From an archaeon (GTDB taxonomy: Archaea; Nanobdellota; Nanobdellia; Pacearchaeales; UBA284), in contig CP070794.1 of assembly GCA_020343435.1 (NCBI GenBank), forward strand, positions 33,891 through 78,301: DNA of 44,411 nucleotides, given 5' to 3'. The notes beneath the pieces were generated by a model, which did not search any database, was not told the origin of the DNA, and saw only the letters and a program-made list of their open reading frames with translations. This document shows, in pieces, positions 5,113-41,028 of the stretch. Within the stretch, counting starts at the first letter, position 1, and each line of letters starts with the position of its first letter. Made by a program: the position numbers and the translations under genes.

Positions 5113-6038
5113 GAATATTAGTAATAGGAGACTTTCATGGGCATATGCCTGTTTTTTTAAACAAAATTTTCAAAAAAGAGAAACCAGATTTAATAGTTTC
5201 ACAAGGAGATTTCTCTGGGAATGATCGGATTAGTAAAATATTTTTTAAGTATTATTATGCGAAAAATAGTAGAGAAAGAAAAAAAATTCCTAAAAAAATA
5301 AGAAACCTTAAAATAAAATTGGAAAGAAAAAGTGTCGAATCTGGAATTGCTATTTTAAAGAAATTTAAGAAATTAAAAAAACCTTTTTATGCTATAAGGG
5401 GAAATTGGGATCCTGTTCCATATCAGTGGTATTATGATATTGGTGGGGATTCACAGATTGAAAAAGATCCTTACTTAAATAAATTCAATAGAGTATTTGA
5501 AAAAGGATTTGAACTTATTGATTTTAAATTCAAAGATCTAAAAGATTTTGTTATTGTTGCAGGATCTTCTTCTACACATCCTGGAAAGATAGATAAAAAA
5601 TCTTTAAACAGATTTTTGAATAAATATAAAGAGACAGATCCGGTCTATGCTAAAAGAAGAATAGAGATTAAAAAGAGACAGTATCATCTTAGGGAAAAAA
5701 GACTCATCAAAGCATTTCAAAAAGCAAGGAAAAGTAAAAAACTAACTATTTTTTTAACTCACAATATCCCATATAACACAAAACTTGATGTAATAATGGC
5801 CAAGAACGCAGATAAGCGGGCTAAAGGACAACATTATGGTTCTTATCTTGATAAAGTAATGATAAAAAGATTTAAACCAAACCTTGTTATTTGTGGACAT
5901 ATGCATGAGAATCCTGGAATCATCAAGATAGGAAAAACAACTGTTGTGAATCCAGGAGCTTCATTAGATAAAAGATATGCTGTTATTGAATTAGGGAAAA
6001 ATAAAATTAAGTCTGTTAAATTAAGGAGGGTAAAATGA
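5109..6038 (+). CDS. Calcineurin-like metallophosphoesterase (paralog)
   Basis: GDFHG, GD, GNWD, THNIP and GHMHE motifs; ATGA overlaps at both ends. Confidence 0.88.
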   Translation: MRILVIGDFHGHMPVFLNKIFKKEKPDLIVSQGDFSGNDRISKIFFKYYYAKNSRERKKIPKKIRNLKIKLERKSVESGIAILKKFKKLKKPFYAIRGNWDPVPYQWYYDIGGDSQIEKDPYLNKFNRVFEKGFELIDFKFKDLKDFVIVAGSSSTHPGKIDKKSLNRFLNKYKETDPVYAKRRIEIKKRQYHLREKRLIKAFQKARKSKKLTIFLTHNIPYNTKLDVIMAKNADKRAKGQHYGSYLDKVMIKRFKPNLVICGHMHENPGIIKIGKTTVVNPGASLDKRYAVIELGKNKIKSVKLRRVK

Positions 6039-35531: not shown

Positions 35532-35969
35532 ATGAAAAAAGAGAATAAATTAAAAGTGAAATTAAAATATCTTGAAAAGAAAAGTATAGAACCAGAACAA
35601 TTATTTAGCTTACATAGATCAGTTAGATGGACAACAAATAAAAATAAACAAAAACAAAAAAAGATAATTTATAAGGAATATAAAAATTCACAGATTGTTG
35701 TTTCTGCTTGGAATGGGAAAGAGTTAGTAGGAGTAATAAGAGCTCTTACAGAGAGAGTTAAAAATGGTATGATATTTGGTCTTGTTGTTAAACAAAAATA
35801 TCGAAGTCTTGGAGTAGGTACAAAACTGATTAAGAAATGTATAAAGAAATATCCTAAAATAAGATGGTATCTTAGATCTGAAAATTCTAAAACAGATAAG
35901 TTTTACAAAAGAAGAGGATTTAAAAAAATAAAAAGAGGTTTTATATGGATACTAGATACCAAAAAATGA
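35532..35969 (+). CDS. GNAT family N-acetyltransferase
   Basis: V...YRSLGVGTKL, FYKRRGF. Confidence 0.85.
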   Translation: MKKENKLKVKLKYLEKKSIEPEQLFSLHRSVRWTTNKNKQKQKKIIYKEYKNSQIVVSAWNGKELVGVIRALTERVKNGMIFGLVVKQKYRSLGVGTKLIKKCIKKYPKIRWYLRSENSKTDKFYKRRGFKKIKRGFIWILDTKK

Positions 35970-37219
35970 AAAAAGAGTTTAATATCAAAGTTAAAGTAAT
36001 AACTAAAGAAAAAACGTATGAAGGAATTCTTTTAGAGAGTCATGATTCTAAAATTATTCTATTAAAATTAAAAAATGGATATAACATTGGAATAAAAAAA
36101 GATTCTATTTTGAAAATTACTAAACTCTCTAATTTGAAAGAACAAAAAACTAAGAAAACAGATCAGGATAAGACTCTTCCCAAGATTGCAATCATAGCAA
36201 CAGGAGGAACTATTGCTTCAAAAGTAGATTATCAAACTGGTGGAGTTCTTGCTGTTGAGAATCCTTATGATCTATTAGAAAACTTTCCTGAACTTAAAAA
36301 AATTATAAGATTTGAAGTTCATGTTCCTTTTAGTGATGATAGTTCCCAAGTCTCTCCAAAAGAATGGGTTAGGTGGTCTAAACTTGTTGCTAAGTTAGTT
36401 AATATGCCTCAAATAAAAGGTGTTGTAATTTTACATGGAACAGATACCTTACATTACTCTGCTTCAGCATTATCTTTTATGTTACATAATTTGAATAAAC
36501 CAGTTGTTTTTACCTTTAGTCAGAGAAGCGTTGATAGGGGTTCAAGTGATTCTTTTTTAAATATAAGATGTGCTTGTCATGCTGCATTAAGTAATATTGC
36601 TGAAGTGATGGTTGTTGGTCATGAGAAATCTGATGATGATTCTTGTTTAATGATAAGAGGAACTAAAGTTAGAAAGATGCATTCAAGTATTAGGGGAGCT
36701 TTTAAACCTATTAATGAGAATCCTTTAGCCAAAGTATTTTCAGATGGCAGAATAGATATTTTGAATCACAAGTTTAGAAAAAGACATGAAGGAAAAGTTA
36801 AACCTTTATCTTTTTTTGAAGAAAAAACTGCCTTAGTTAAGTTTTTTCCAGGAAGTTCTTCTGAGATCTTAGATTCTTTAATTAAGAAGGGGTATAAAGG
36901 AATTATTATTGAAGCTGTTGGTTTAGGCCAATTACCTGTAGAAGGAACAAATTCATGGTTAACTAAGATTAAACAAGCTATTTATAAGAAAATATTTGTT
37001 GGAGTGACTTCTCAAACAATTTATGGGAGAGTTAATCCTTATGTTTATTCTCCTTCGAGAAAAGTGGAAAAAGCTGGAGCTGTTTATCTGAAAGATATGT
37101 TATCTGAAACAGCTTATGTTAAGTTAGGATGGCTCTTAGGACAAAAAAAGAAATTTAAGGAATTGAGCAAAGAAATGCTAGAGAACAAATCTCATGAGTT
37201 CAATGAAAGGATGTTTTAA
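35966..37219 (+). CDS. gatD: Glu-tRNA(Gln) amidotransferase subunit D
   Basis: KL.NGYNIG N-terminal domain, TGGTIAS, HGTDT, SQRS.DR.SSD, RKMH, ETAYVKLGW. Start ATG 35966 overlaps the GNAT stop. Confidence 0.92.
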   Translation: MKKEFNIKVKVITKEKTYEGILLESHDSKIILLKLKNGYNIGIKKDSILKITKLSNLKEQKTKKTDQDKTLPKIAIIATGGTIASKVDYQTGGVLAVENPYDLLENFPELKKIIRFEVHVPFSDDSSQVSPKEWVRWSKLVAKLVNMPQIKGVVILHGTDTLHYSASALSFMLHNLNKPVVFTFSQRSVDRGSSDSFLNIRCACHAALSNIAEVMVVGHEKSDDDSCLMIRGTKVRKMHSSIRGAFKPINENPLAKVFSDGRIDILNHKFRKRHEGKVKPLSFFEEKTALVKFFPGSSSEILDSLIKKGYKGIIIEAVGLGQLPVEGTNSWLTKIKQAIYKKIFVGVTSQTIYGRVNPYVYSPSRKVEKAGAVYLKDMLSETAYVKLGWLLGQKKKFKELSKEMLENKSHEFNERMF

Positions 37220-37239
37220 CTTTAGAGTTACAAGATAGC

Positions 37240-37246
37240 TTTATAA
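37240..37246 (+). promoter_or_regulatory. TATA box upstream of the candidate ncRNA
   Basis: TTTATAA ending ~22-25 nt before the 5' strand of the terminal helix. Confidence 0.6.
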
Positions 37247-37267
37247 CTTCTAGAAAAGTATCAAATC

Positions 37268-37497
37268 TAAGCCGATTAGGACATTTCGGTTGCTCTGGAA
37301 AGAGTGCTACTACAGGGCCTCTGTTCAGTGTCTTGCAAGTAGTTTTGCGACTGGACTACAAACTCGCATTACGAAACCTGCACTGTTTAAGCTTATCTGT
37401 GGGGCGAAGGAGACAACCTCTAAAACAAGCCAATAGGTTCGTCTAAAGTTTGGTAGTTGTTTGAGGCACTTTTTCACCGAGTCCAGATATCGGCTTA
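37268..37497 (+). ncRNA. Unclassified ~230-nt structured RNA
   Basis: About 45% GC by hand count in a strongly AT-rich window, with no ORF in the track. Nested helices close the 5' and 3' ends (TAAGCCGAT/ATCGGCTTA and others); G-U pairs favour the + strand; TATA box upstream. Confidence 0.75.
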
Positions 37498-37516
37498 ATA
37501 TTCAAAAGAGGGTGAA

Positions 37517-37690
37517 ATGGTTAGAAGAAAAAGAAAGAAAAAAAGAAGAAGAGGAGTTAGAAGAAAAATTAAAAAAGTTAAAAAAAGAGTAAAAAAAAGA
37601 ACCCAAAAAAAACATTCAAGAAGAGCAAGTAAAAAAAACAAGATTTCTAAAGTTAAAAAATTATTAAGACTTTACAAAAGAAGAAAGTAG
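37517..37690 (+). CDS. Protamine-like Arg/Lys-rich peptide (57 aa); not in ORF track
   Basis: MVRRKRKKKRRRGVRRKIKKVKKRVKKRTQKKHSRRASKKNKISKVKKLLRLYKRRK; GAGGGTGA Shine-Dalgarno-like at 37508-15. Confidence 0.72.
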   Translation: MVRRKRKKKRRRGVRRKIKKVKKRVKKRTQKKHSRRASKKNKISKVKKLLRLYKRRK

Positions 37691-37734
37691 TTCTATAACA
37701 AAAGATTTATAATTTAATTTAGTGATATATATCT

Positions 37735-40700
37735 ATGAAAAGAGGGGCATTAATCCTAGTTTTAATTATTTTATTTTTTGTAAGTATAACTCTAATTTCT
37801 GCAGAAGAATATATTGAAGATGGCTATAAATATGCTAATTATAGCCAATTCTTATTTTCTTCAAAAAACAAGATTTCTTGTACTTATTTGCCAGGTGAAG
37901 ATTGGAAAACATGTGAACCAATTGTTGAAGTAAATAATACAGGTGATAATGAATCTATAAACAAAAATCTAATATCTAAAGTAGTAGATATCCCTAGTAG
38001 AAATCTAGATATCTACTATACTTATGATTTTGAGTATTATAATGAATCTATTTATTTTGATGTAGAGAATGAGACAGATATAGAATGTCTTGAGGATTTT
38101 GATTGTGATGATGATAATGAAGATACTTGGGATTTTTGTGTTGGGGTAAATATAACAAACATGACTGAAGGTAATTGTACTTACCATTACCAAGACTATT
38201 ATAATGTTCTTAGAAAAAGGTTTCTTAATTGGCAAGAAGCTGGAAATCAAATAGTACTTCAGACAGGAATAACTGGATTAATGTTGGTATTTGATGTTGA
38301 AAAATACAAAGCAGGACATTTTAATGTTAGTGTTGGGAGTTATACAATTGATCCAGATATTGATGCTTGTGGAACATTATCAAGTGCAAACACAATTTAC
38401 ACTTTAAATCAAAGTGTAAATTCAACAGGAACTTGTTTCAACATTACAGCCAATAATGTAACATTGGATTGTGCTGGTTATTGGTTAAATATAACTGATT
38501 CTGGAACCACTTATGCTGTTTATTCTGATCAAAATGATACAACAGTCAAGAATTGTTATATCTGGGATGTTAGTGGAGATGCAGATGGAATAACATTTAG
38601 TGGTGTTAATGGTGCTACAATTTTTAATAATACAATGAATTCAAGTTCTTCTGGAGCTGATTTTATTACCATAACTAATAGTGATGACATAAATGTTACA
38701 GGAAATACAGGTTTTACGAGTGGTGGTAGTTCAAGGACTATGTTTTACACTTATTCATCTAACAATATATATCTTAATAATAATAACATGACACATTGGG
38801 GTGGGGGAAGTGCTGGTAATGCTTATAGAATTGGTGCTAGTTATCTTGGATGTGAAAATGTTACTATTCAAAATTCTTATGGTTATTCAGGGTCTTCTTA
38901 TACTTTGGAGATTGTAGGTTCAAAAAATGTTTCAGTAATTAATTCAAATTTTTCTAGTGATAATGTTGGAATTATAAATTTTGCATCTTCATCTGGTTCA
39001 ATAGACTATTATAATCATACATTTACAAATTGTCGTGGTCCTGATGGTGGTTTTGTAAATTATAGTGTTAATGTAAGTGGAATTGTATTAGAAGACCTTA
39101 ATTATTCAGGAGATCATGATTGGATTGGTTTTGCATTTAGTGATAATATAACTATAGATAATTCAACATTTGATGGATCAATAAAGTTTTACTATACAGA
39201 CAATGTATCAATAAATGATGTAACTATTGATACTTCGTGGGAGTATGGTCTTTATTTTTCAAATTCTGATTATTTCAATATAAGTGATTGTTCTATAAAA
39301 GCTGACAATTATAAGTTTTATCAAAGTAGTTCTGATTATTTTAATGTAAGTAATATCACTTTTCCTAGTTATGGTTCAACATATATTTATATTGGTGGTT
39401 CAAGTGATTCAAATTATTCTAGCATGTTTGCTGATGATACTAATGGTTACCCTATGTTAGGATTAGGGTCTGGAAATGATAATCTTTATTTTGATGATAT
39501 TCATTTAAGCACTCAATGTGATGGTTGTTCTAGTGGAACAGCAAGAACGGTTTCTATAACAGGAGATCAAGATAACATTGTTTTTAATAATTCTGTTTTA
39601 ATTAATAATAGAACTACAAGCTGGAACGGAAATAGTCCTTCAATCTATGTTGATGCTGGAACTATGACTAATGTTTCTATATATAATTCAAATTTAACAA
39701 ATTATATTTGGGCAGATGTTTATTGGGACAGCGCAAGCGTTTCAGGAACAATAGATAGAATAAATTGCACAGTATATAATGATTCAAGTGCTGACAAATA
39801 TGACAAATTTGCAGGAGACCTTGGAGCAGTTACAAGGCAATGGTATGCAGATACTTATGTTAATGATACTGCAGGAAGTGCAATAGAAGGTGCAAATGTC
39901 TCAATAACAGATGTTAATTCTAATCTCATTAATTGGAGTTTAACTAATTCTTCTGGATATATCCAAAGATTAACTTTAAGAGAATACTGGCAAAACTACA
40001 CAGCAACTTATTATGATACTAATTATACATTTAATGGAACTTTAGCTGGTTATAATGATGACTCAGAGGAAGTTAATTTAACTAATAATAGAATTAGTGG
40101 AGATGGTGGGATAATTGCTCTAACTTTGCCTCCTGAAGATACAACAGATCCCACTGCAACCTTAGGAACCAATCCTATTGATAATTATGATACTTCAAAT
40201 ACATCAGTTACTTTTGATTTCAAATGTTCAGATAATCTTGGTATAGCTAAGGTAGAATTATGGGGTAATTGGACAGGATCTTGGCATGCCAATTATACTA
40301 ATTCTAGCTATACAAACAATACTTGGTTAAATATTACAGTAAATAACTTTTCAGAAGGAACTTATATCTGGGGAGTTTATTGTAATGACAGTTATGGAAA
40401 TGATAACTGGACAAGTAATAGAACATTTACAATAAGTACTGCTTCTTCTCCAGAAACTCCTGGAGCATCTCCTGGAGGAACTGGAAGTTCTGGTGGAGAA
40501 GGAGTAGATCAGAGTTTGAGAGAAAAGTATTTTTGGCTAAATAATGTAACTTTAGATGAAAATAACAATTCTTATTTTAAGAAATGGGAAAGAGTTCTTA
40601 TAGATGTAAATGGAACAAACCATTCTTTTGGGGTTATAGATATACAATCTGGAAGAGCAAGTGTTCTGGCACAGAGTGCAAACCAATTTGCAGTATTATA

Positions 40701-41028
40701 TTTAGGAGATGAGAGAAAATTCGAAGTAAATGGAGATTCTTTTTATGATGTATATGTAAGATTAAATGACTTATATACTCATAAGGTAAATTTAACTGTT
40801 AGAAAGATTCATGAAGGGTTTTATACTGGTGAAACAGGGGAAGGAGAAACAGCTTCTGAAGAAGATGGAAAATCAGAAAATCTTGTTACTTATATTGAAG
40901 GATTTTCTGAAAACCTGTTATCAGTCTACCAAATCCTCATAATAGTTCTAGTTATTTTTGCTGTTATTATTCTAACCCAGGTTTTTAGAAAAAAGAGAGA
41001 TTTAAGATCCGTAAGCTTTAAATACTGA
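37735..41028 (+). CDS. Large surface glycoprotein with right-handed parallel beta-helix and Ig-like domains, C-terminal TM
   Basis: Signal peptide; TCFNITANNVTLDCAG (beta-helix cap), Asn/Ser-rich repeats, GTYIWGVYCND Ig motif, very many NxS/T sequons, TM + RKKR. Confidence 0.88.
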   Translation: MKRGALILVLIILFFVSITLISAEEYIEDGYKYANYSQFLFSSKNKISCTYLPGEDWKTCEPIVEVNNTGDNESINKNLISKVVDIPSRNLDIYYTYDFEYYNESIYFDVENETDIECLEDFDCDDDNEDTWDFCVGVNITNMTEGNCTYHYQDYYNVLRKRFLNWQEAGNQIVLQTGITGLMLVFDVEKYKAGHFNVSVGSYTIDPDIDACGTLSSANTIYTLNQSVNSTGTCFNITANNVTLDCAGYWLNITDSGTTYAVYSDQNDTTVKNCYIWDVSGDADGITFSGVNGATIFNNTMNSSSSGADFITITNSDDINVTGNTGFTSGGSSRTMFYTYSSNNIYLNNNNMTHWGGGSAGNAYRIGASYLGCENVTIQNSYGYSGSSYTLEIVGSKNVSVINSNFSSDNVGIINFASSSGSIDYYNHTFTNCRGPDGGFVNYSVNVSGIVLEDLNYSGDHDWIGFAFSDNITIDNSTFDGSIKFYYTDNVSINDVTIDTSWEYGLYFSNSDYFNISDCSIKADNYKFYQSSSDYFNVSNITFPSYGSTYIYIGGSSDSNYSSMFADDTNGYPMLGLGSGNDNLYFDDIHLSTQCDGCSSGTARTVSITGDQDNIVFNNSVLINNRTTSWNGNSPSIYVDAGTMTNVSIYNSNLTNYIWADVYWDSASVSGTIDRINCTVYNDSSADKYDKFAGDLGAVTRQWYADTYVNDTAGSAIEGANVSITDVNSNLINWSLTNSSGYIQRLTLREYWQNYTATYYDTNYTFNGTLAGYNDDSEEVNLTNNRISGDGGIIALTLPPEDTTDPTATLGTNPIDNYDTSNTSVTFDFKCSDNLGIAKVELWGNWTGSWHANYTNSSYTNNTWLNITVNNFSEGTYIWGVYCNDSYGNDNWTSNRTFTISTASSPETPGASPGGTGSSGGEGVDQSLREKYFWLNNVTLDENNNSYFKKWERVLIDVNGTNHSFGVIDIQSGRASVLAQSANQFAVLYLGDERKFEVNGDSFYDVYVRLNDLYTHKVNLTVRKIHEGFYTGETGEGETASEEDGKSENLVTYIEGFSENLLSVYQILIIVLVIFAVIILTQVFRKKRDLRSVSFKY

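Follow-up and report, generated by a model that had tools for sequence, protein, structure and literature searches.

We report a 202-nt circular RNA, cut at the sites of a motif of bulge-helix-bulge (BHB) type, that is encoded in a 44,411-nt stretch of DNA (hereafter the window) from an archaeon of the order Pacearchaeales (GCA_020343435.1, contig CP070794.1, positions 33,891 to 78,301 of the forward strand). The element occupies 37240-37497 on the + strand of the window, and coordinates below refer to the window unless they are preceded by C1, the single contig of the host genome. The RNA represents a novel structured RNA family in DPANN archaea. It is followed by an open reading frame (ORF) of 57 amino acids (aa). 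The product is a member of a microprotein family that is likewise new, and this family was seen nowhere except next to the RNA. The reading that we favor, and hold to be probable though far from certain, is that one transcript yields both a circular non-coding RNA (ncRNA) and the mRNA of a probable protein partner, by way of BHB excision.

A circular RNA cut at bulge-helix-bulge sites

A BHB motif is described as a four-bp helix with two three-nt bulges on opposite strands (PMC7714728). The window contains a canonical motif of this type, made of the outer helix P1, a 4-bp central helix GGAC/GTCC (hereafter H), two 3-nt bulges and the inner helix P2 (Table 1); on the 5' strand, two unpaired nucleotides separate P1 from H. 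The motif was then followed through 76 distinct copies of the RNA. In 54 of the 76 copies H has 4 bp and occupies precisely the canonical position, in another 12 it does so with 3 bp, and 56 copies combine an H of at least 3 bp with an outer helix of at least 4 bp. The circles predicted for the homologues are 186-209 nt long, with a cluster at 200-204 nt and a mode of 202-203 nt.

The circular form itself was seen in assembled metatranscriptomes. Contigs of four runs were mapped to 37100-37800 at a likeness of at least 85%, and runs X5-X7 (0.04 of words) were left out of this mapping. In all four runs, contig cover was limited to 37285-37487, apart from a faint patch at 37556-37627 in the low-complexity ORF. 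In run X1, a 199-nt contig contains the pieces 37285-37406 and 37410-37486 in permuted order, with a joint that leads from 37486 back to 37285 and thereby spans 202 nt. Contigs ending at 37486 in X1, X3 and X4, which come from three studies, continue with TTCGGTTG, which is the 5' start of the stretch (37285 onwards) in the spelling of its relatives. Conversely, contigs of X4 that start at 37285 are preceded by CACCGAGTCCAG, the 3' end of the RNA up to 37486. The circular joint coincides with both BHB bulges. A repeat in tandem on the DNA is not the explanation for the joint, since 204 DNA loci were without the junction sequence. The initial annotation, made from the letters of the window alone, had suggested looking for a discrete transcript of the + strand starting at about 37270; an RNA is represented by contigs in four of four runs, starting at 37285 and with a strand that the contigs do not reveal.

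The enzymes needed for such processing are encoded in the host genome. The tRNA-splicing endonuclease EndA was found as a one-domain protein in a 189-aa frame (the frame of C1:205657-205914; PF01974, 102.8 bits), and the ligase RtcB in a 480-aa frame (PF01139, 537.9 bits). We take the one-domain EndA to fit the homotetrameric type. Both cuts fall behind the second nucleotide of the bulge, which is the canonical, two-fold symmetric position. Non-canonical motifs are attributed in PMC5829648 to other EndA types only, which agrees with the strict BHB geometry observed here. With the motif, its outer helices, the junction and both enzymes in place, the element is probably an archaeal BHB-processed circular RNA.

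A conserved and covarying fold

A BLAST-type search of 60 relatives returned 20 places in 17 genomes (E < 1e-6), with 68-76% identity across 130-240 nt. For a 20-sequence MAFFT alignment, on which a covariance model (CM) was also built, RNAalifold gave 66 pairs, 40 of them with compensatory changes. The final structure, evaluated on the 76 distinct copies, has 71 pairs. In it, 94.4% of the cells are paired (80.4% in shuffles), 61 of the 71 pairs show changes on both sides (40.5 expected from shuffles), and the covariation score is 0.476 (0.202 in shuffles). None of 500 shuffles reached any of these three values, and slid controls paired in 31-44%. The 76-copy alignment was fitted to the nested helices and therefore leans towards them; an independent MAFFT alignment agrees with the structure (95.5% paired, 42/71 pairs).

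In folding by energy, the 239-nt stretch has z-scores of -2.84 (+ strand) and -2.92 (- strand), the 202-nt circle alone has a z-score of -0.38, and the minimum-free-energy fold of the circle differs from the covariation fold. Single-sequence folding is only weakly informative here, and it is from covariation rather than from energy that the structure is proved.

The fold that has support is built around a four-way junction with P2, P3, an arm of P4, P5 and P6, and a long P7 arm (Table 1). In the circle, P2 is a 5-bp stem with the 7-nt loop GUCCAGU on top. The tetraloop of P3 reads GGAA in the window and GAAA in most relatives, and one pair of this hairpin, 32/46, is UA in 57 copies and CG in 17. 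Loops and junctions are almost invariant in the three phylum samples described below.

This fold departs in part from the one drawn by eye in the initial annotation, a long interrupted rod ending in a junction with two arms. The outer helices of the rod (37269-76/37489-96, 37279-82/37481-84 and 37286-90/37476-80) exist and covary, but its middle part fails: the helices 37298-308/37465-75, 37309-13/37453-57 and 37315-20/37435-40, taken together with the stem GTAGTT/GACTAC, are paired in 74.3% of the cells against a shuffled mean of 74.2%, and 243 of 500 shuffles equal or exceed the observed pairing. In the first arm, CAGTG/CACTG covaries, whereas the inner stem GTAGTT/GACTAC forms in 61.9% of the cells and shows no covariation beyond shuffles. 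The pairing TGCGA/TCGCA, taken at the time for an H-type pseudoknot, proved to be the ordinary nested hairpin stem P6 (37343-49/37365-71), and the hairpin GCTCT-GGAA-AGAGT is not an alternative, switching structure but the constitutive, covarying GNRA hairpin P3. The BHB nature of the outer helices, the 202-nt circle and the tie to the ORF rich in lysine and arginine (K/R-rich) had been missed.

Two mutually exclusive partners for one strand

A different pseudoknot, or kissing-loop interaction, emerged from the alignment. The sequence CTGGAC in the P6 loop can pair with GTCCAG at the 3' end of the circle. This pairing is not in the model behind the alignment; across the 76 distinct copies it forms in 98.0% of the cells, and four of its six pairs change on both sides. 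The same GUCC is the 3' strand of H. Columns 20, 98 and 232 of alignment A1 shift jointly from A/A/U to G/G/C in 5 of 20 copies, which constitutes a three-way covariation; columns 20 and 232, the H pair, are AU in 13 copies and GC in 5, and some further copies alter the neighboring pair of the GUCC pairings. Both pairings of GUCC, with the 5' GGAC and with the P6 loop, therefore covary, and they are mutually exclusive. The kiss may be intramolecular or may link separate molecules.

These observations suggest a sequence of events in which excision would act on folding. In the precursor, GUCC would be held in the BHB helix. Because excision removes the 5' GGAC, GUCCAG would become available, and together with the following U it would form the 7-nt loop on P2, able to kiss the P6 loop. 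The kiss would then lock a compact four-arm fold composed of P2, the GNRA hairpin P3, the arm P4-P5-P6 and P7.

A microprotein tied to the RNA

Of 77 distinct RNA copies, 67 have a K/R-rich ORF behind them. It lies on the same strand, at -14 to +142 nt from the model match, and encodes 38-78 aa with a K+R content of at least 38%. In an alignment of 55 of these microproteins, R35, K42, K45 and K48 are invariant and S38 and S44 nearly so, with the core R..S.KSK.SKV.KLIKLAK. When 151 genomes of the order were searched with a profile of the family, 31 had a match; each of these is among the 37 genomes in which the RNA was found, and none of the 114 RNA-negative genomes of the order had a match. 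All 36 protein places lie at most 200 nt 3' of an RNA match, and the copy numbers of the two agree. The microprotein family is new, and nowhere was it found apart from the RNA.

Searches for relatives of known function were negative. The homology search with the microprotein gave no match, nor did a profile search of the PDB at E up to 10. Among Pfam, NCBIfam and PADLOC no family was assigned, and one of the 55 members had a marginal PADLOC match. In 1.84 billion representative proteins, the profile had 129 matches at E up to 0.001, nearly all of 31-119 aa, and the sole match in the ESM Atlas was an unnamed Nanobdellota cluster (0.92). AlphaFold2 modeled the protein as two basic helices, 2-29 and 42-56, with the conserved loop between them (mean pLDDT 90.5, pTM 0.43). 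Two longer proteins, P0099 (209 aa) and P0066 (119 aa), carry the microprotein at the C-terminus behind unrelated sequence without a Pfam domain; one of the two has, by eye, a glutamine-amidotransferase-like N-terminus. They look like read-through or chimeric gene calls.

Patchy distribution among DPANN genomes

Full-length CM matches were found in 37 of 151 genomes of the order, belonging to 22 of 84 genera. In a sample of the window's phylum, 14 of 151 genomes had matches, as did 12 of 101 and 13 of 101 in the phyla of genomes with records titled Iainarchaeum and Micrarchaeota, respectively. Covarying homologues occur in genomes with the record titles Pacearchaeota, Woesearchaeota, Nanoarchaeia, Iainarchaeum and Micrarchaeota. 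The match places in the Iainarchaeum- and Micrarchaeota-centered samples do not coincide with those in the window's phylum, in contrast to the places obtained around a third center, which did, and we infer from this that the two samples represent phyla distinct from the window's. A genome whose record is titled Methanosarcinales (G302/L100) groups with the window's own phylum, so that the CM searches covered DPANN groups only.

Five relatives that are 91-100% complete, one of them a single contig, gave no RNA match even when filters were lax and E values up to 1 were allowed. Among viral contigs there were four pattern matches and no CM match. Genomes with the RNA have one or two divergent copies, and there is one tandem pair: L132:5347-5581 and 5680-5914 have identical scores, lie 333 nt apart, and the first copy is followed only by a truncated K-rich ORF. 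A contig with archaeal RNA and microprotein (L130) stands in a bacterial bin with a record titled Saccharibacteria and is probably mis-binned.

The RNA tree is not congruent with taxonomy. Copies from Iainarchaeota and Micrarchaeota nest inside it, and one clade with an SH-aLRT of 99 unites the families f1, f9 and f48. The copies L023, L067, L068 and L073, which lack the BHB and have the promoter box close to P2, form one clade as well (SH-aLRT 94), which spans the same three families. The promoter-adjacent copies without a BHB L073 (G255, f48), L066 (G139, f9) and L067 (G005, f1) make up a tight clade with an SH-aLRT of 99 and branches of 0.04-0.10, which suggests transfer between lineages or an old paralogue. 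The tree is weak, with 24 of its 49 inner branches open, so transfer and paralogy are not separable. A distribution that is patchy and in part not vertical suggests that the role is accessory and not one of core housekeeping. Together with divergent copies, one or two to a genome, neighbors that shift and a tree that does not follow taxonomy, it points to the RNA-protein pair as an accessory unit that is possibly mobile.

No match to known RNA families

The initial annotation had proposed either a novel DPANN ncRNA with its own promoter or a highly diverged RNA of the signal recognition particle (SRP) or of RNase P. The first proposal stands: covarying homologues occur across DPANN genomes, and Rfam provided no significant match. 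A scan of 37150-37600 at E up to 10 gave four chance matches of 13.8-21.5 bits (E 1.6-8.9), for families with cut-offs of 48.7-143.5 bits, and at the same threshold the models Archaea_SRP (RF01857) and RNaseP_arch (RF00373) had no match in this region. The second proposal is ruled out, because the host genome holds canonical copies of both RNAs elsewhere (Table 1).

Other identities were tried on the sequence of the element. ARAGORN found nothing on the doubled 202-nt circle. A rolling-circle ORF is ruled out by stops in all three frames of the circle. Compared with its own genome by similarity or complementarity, the circle matched just itself and chance 11-16-mers. The element has no C/D or H/ACA boxes, and there is no tandem repeat in 37240-37500. 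In the published literature we found no description of the RNA; supplementary tables of circular RNAs and metatranscriptome catalogues of circular RNAs, which were left unchecked, may list it.

Promoter and leader

A TATA-like box precedes the RNA, as the initial annotation had recognized, and it keeps a set distance in homologues. Among the 66 copies of BHB type, the best TTTATATA-like 8-mer starts at -46/-45 from P2 in 29 and at -47 to -43 in 38. Given this fixed distance, transcription would start at or just before P1. Slightly further upstream, an imperfect palindrome was noticed by eye; a related AGTRRT box stands at -61 to -57 from P2 in 23 of the 66 BHB-type copies, and in relatives its half-sites change jointly, as in CACTTTAAAGTG and CTCCGGAG. 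The combination AGTRRT-N-TATA is not a general promoter in the host genome, where it had 16 matches against 34 in mononucleotide shuffles and where none of the matches stands before a known RNA gene. Downstream of P1, between RNA and ORF, runs of at least five T occur in 14 of 56 copies and not in the window. No conserved helix covers either the Shine-Dalgarno-like sequence or the ATG.

Genomic setting

The host genome is a single contig of 647,887 bp with a completeness of 85.6%, of which the window is C1:33891-78301. The RNA element sits between gatD (35945-37219), whose product has Asparaginase and GatD_N domains, and the microprotein ORF; apart from this ORF, flanking genes vary from locus to locus. 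No long ORF runs across 37240-37497, and the GC content of 37300-37499 is 0.445 against 0.21-0.35 in the flanks, in keeping with the non-coding GC island of the initial annotation.

Behind the microprotein ORF, a 1097-aa ORF (37735-41028) with a hydrophobic N-terminus matches Beta_helix and CarboxypepD_reg only weakly, at E 0.006-0.009 and short of the cut-offs, and its product is probably a surface protein. The whole window gave no Rfam match at gathering scores. ARAGORN found no tRNA or tmRNA gene in the window and 39 tRNA genes in the whole genome. It did not call a tRNA-like 3' part, GGGCCTGCCAGGGCTCGAAC, which on the - strand near C1:189450 follows a site resembling a promoter; this part may belong to an intron-containing or split tRNA.

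Table 1. Features of the element and its surroundings, with known RNA genes located elsewhere in the host genome
Feature	Position	Strand	Description
Imperfect palindrome AACTTTAGAGTT	37218-37229	+	overlaps the gatD stop codon; ~10 nt upstream of the TATA-like box
TATA-like box TTTATAAC	37240-37247	+	46 nt before P2, about 22-29 nt before P1
P1, 5' strand	37269-37276	+	pairs with 37489-37496; 8/8 pairs change on both sides; remains in 5' exon
BHB central helix H, 5' strand GGAC	37279-37282	+	pairs with GTCC 37481-84; not in circle
5' bulge ATT	37283-37285	+	cut between 37284 and 37285
Mature 202-nt circular ncRNA	37285-37486	+	metatranscriptome contig junction
P2	37286-37290 (TCGGT) with 37476-80 (ACCGA)	+	97.9% of cells pair; 3/5 pairs change on both sides
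P3 hairpin, GNRA tetraloop	37292-37305	+	98.9% of cells pair
P4	37306-14/37398-405	+	8/8 pairs change on both sides
P5	37316-18/37391-93 and 37322-31/37380-89	+	upper P5: 7/7 pairs change on both sides
P6 hairpin, conserved 15-nt loop	37343-49/37365-71	+	6/7 pairs change on both sides
Pseudoknot or kissing-loop 5' strand CTGGAC, P6 loop	37351-37356	+	pairs with GTCCAG 37481-86
P7 arm	37406-12/37469-75, 37417-27/37458-66, 37430-33/37450-53	+	19/20 pairs change on both sides
GTCCAG	37481-37486	+	precursor: 37481-84 would pair with GGAC; circle: would pair with the P6 loop
3' bulge AGA	37485-37487	+	cut between 37486 and 37487
P1, 3' strand	37489-37496	+	remains in 3' exon
Microprotein ORF, 57 aa, 63% K+R	37517-37690	+	preceded by GAGGGTGA
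RNaseP_arch	C1:452592-452880		128.1 bits (cut-off 84); host genome, outside the element
Archaea_SRP	C1:385833-386101		97.8 bits (cut-off 96.5); host genome, outside the element
5S rRNA			69.3 bits; host genome, outside the element
23S rRNA			full length; host genome, outside the element

Interpretation

The steps of the process that we favor can be set out as follows. A promoter about 25 nt upstream of P1 would drive a transcript in which the structured RNA is flanked by the canonical BHB. EndA would cut both bulges, at 37284|37285 and 37486|37487, and RtcB would close the excised piece into the 202-nt circle. Presumably RtcB also joins the exons, and this ligation would give a short-leader mRNA for the K/R-rich protein of 57 aa. 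The circle and the microprotein may then assemble into a ribonucleoprotein particle (RNP), with a fixed ratio set by their origin from one transcript.

Several points weigh against this reading. At the RNA level the evidence comes from contigs that had been assembled and not from the raw reads; strand and level are not readable in such contigs, which also leave room for a re-linearized mature form. No exon-exon junction was present among the metatranscriptome contigs, and their cover is uninformative on mRNA or precursor. The cut within each bulge is placed in accordance with the canonical rule. The canonical H is missing from 10 of the 76 copies. At least four copies without a BHB (L023, L067, L068 and L073) have the TATA-like box 29-30 nt before P2 and an ATG within about 10-20 nt after GUCC or GCCC, and in these the RNA would be an uncut, linear 5' leader. 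The ORF is lacking after 10 of the 77 RNA copies, one of which is cut by a contig end and another of which is the first of the tandem pair. The tie between RNA and microprotein is one of linkage and co-occurrence. Finally, all CM searches were made in DPANN groups.

Some of these points bear on another explanation, which we regard as unlikely: the RNA might be mainly a cis-acting element of the 5' untranslated region (UTR) that controls the ORF, with the circle as a stable by-product. Such an element could be an autoregulatory leader bound by the protein, or splicing could be gated by GGAC and the P6 loop as rivals in pairing with GUCC. That the RNA always stands upstream of the ORF on the same strand fits this explanation, as do the subgroup without a BHB, in which the RNA itself is the 5' leader (box 29-30 nt before P2), the covariation of two mutually exclusive partners of GUCC, and the precedent of HVO_1309 from Haloferax volcanii, whose 5' UTR holds a BHB intron, as reported in PMC7714728. 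Nevertheless, loops and junctions that are near-invariant over three phylum samples exceed what a leader usually needs, and the metatranscriptome contigs recover the circle. A leader would also fit less well with T-runs between RNA and ORF (at least five T in 14/56 copies), with a spacing of up to 142 nt, with the 10 of 77 copies that have no ORF, and with the lack of a conserved helix that would sequester the Shine-Dalgarno-like sequence or the ATG.

By loose analogy with type III systems, the pair might instead be a selfish or accessory module of toxin-antitoxin type, in which the upstream pseudoknotted RNA would neutralize a harmful basic peptide; we judge this quite improbable. The patchy occurrence (37/151, 14/151, 12/101 and 13/101 genomes, and no match in five genomes that are 91-100% complete), the one or two divergent copies per genome with one tandem pair, the flanking genes that differ between loci, and an RNA tree at odds with taxonomy, with its SH-aLRT 99 clade across f1, f9 and f48, would all be expected of such a module, and so would the order of RNA and then protein, with T-runs between them in some copies. 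Yet the RNA has no tandem repeats and changes in sequence very slowly, which is unusual for antitoxin RNAs, and the protein falls into no defense or toxin family, with a marginal PADLOC match in 1 of 55 members. The viral contigs gave no CM match in four pattern matches, and no mobile-element genes were noticed in the flanks, where the neighbors that carried a name, read by eye and without a protein-family scan, were housekeeping genes. Paralogy and a weak tree (24/49 branches open) can account for part of the incongruence. Archaeal SRP RNA and tRNA genes can be permuted and then restored through BHB processing, and the branched shape and terminal stem of the element had brought SRP RNA to mind in the initial annotation. 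A diverged or circularly permuted SRP RNA, RNase P RNA, 5S rRNA or tRNA-like RNA is nevertheless highly implausible, as RNase P RNA, SRP RNA, 5S and 23S rRNA all lie elsewhere in the same 648-kb genome, no partial Rfam match appeared at E up to 10, ARAGORN was blank on the doubled circle, and the element, unlike a universal RNA, is missing from many near-complete relatives. Least of all do we credit a chance fold in a spacer; the energy of the circle is no better than that of shuffles (z -0.38), but 76 covarying homologues, RNA contigs in four of four runs and a conserved promoter distance speak for a real RNA.

The reading of one transcript that gives a circular ncRNA and a partner mRNA can be extended, more speculatively. 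It is conceivable, though we would not rely on it, that DPANN archaea possess an abundant circular RNP made of the ring RNA and a basic helix-loop-helix microprotein of ~50 aa, both from one transcript, in which splicing serves as a folding switch because the final kissing-loop fold could arise only once EndA had taken away the competing 5' strand, and that this module moves between lineages and has a possible function in addiction, defense or host interaction. If true, the circular RNP would be a new class of RNA-protein system, not a variant of a known RNP.

Several consequences can be drawn from the present data. The RNA is a new structured family with a well-supported fold, ready for Rfam. 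It offers a natural example in which splicing takes away a competing strand, so that the final RNA fold can form. It may also be part of an RNP specific to its lineages, a concrete proposal that can be tested, in organisms of which little biology is known and whose genomes are so small that each conserved non-coding element is notable.

Comparison with known systems

Archaeal SRP RNA and RNase P RNA are similar in size to the element and, like it, are branched and closed by a terminal stem; by contrast, neither of their models (RF01857 and RF00373) matches the element, and both RNAs are encoded elsewhere in the genome. Type III toxin-antitoxin systems such as ToxIN consist of a promoter, a structured and pseudoknotted RNA, a partial terminator and a protein gene, and their tandem RNA repeats are processed by a ToxN-like endoribonuclease. 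The order of elements and the patchy occurrence are alike in the present case. The differences are the lack of RNA repeats and of an endoribonuclease-like protein, the predicted processing by the host EndA, and the archaeal setting.

Functional RNAs that are released at BHB sites include the C/D box sRNA within the tRNA-Trp intron, circular pre-16S and pre-23S rRNA, and the permuted SRP RNA of Thermoproteus. As in these cases, EndA and ligation would set the final topology here, and the excised circle can be the functional product. The host transcript is different, being an mRNA leader rather than a tRNA or an rRNA operon, and the RNA belongs to no C/D, H/ACA or Rfam family. Circular rRNA and tRNA-Trp intron circles are known in archaea (PMC12558985, PMC7714728).

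In archaea, the known substrates of BHB splicing are tRNA introns, intermediates of rRNA and some scattered mRNAs. In Crenarchaeota, the cbf5 pre-mRNA is a protein-coding transcript that is spliced by the tRNA-splicing machinery (PMC2738675). Its intron splits the reading frame and is not known to be a conserved ncRNA; in the present case nothing interrupts the coding sequence, and conservation lies in the intron. The closest published precedent that we found comes from HVO_1309, where a 46-nt intron of BHB type lies in the 5' UTR; it is reported for one species, Haloferax volcanii (Schwarz et al. 2020, PMC7714728). Both cases have an EndA-type BHB in the 5' UTR of a protein-coding gene and an excised piece that is circular. 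The account of the HVO_1309 intron in PMC7714728 mentions no conserved internal fold or partner protein. By contrast, the RNA described here is ~202 nt long, has a fold with 60 covarying base pairs and a pseudoknot, occurs in three phylum samples and comes with its own microprotein. In this case the piece cut out of a protein gene's leader is itself an RNA of large size, with a pseudoknot and deep conservation, present in at least three DPANN phylum samples.

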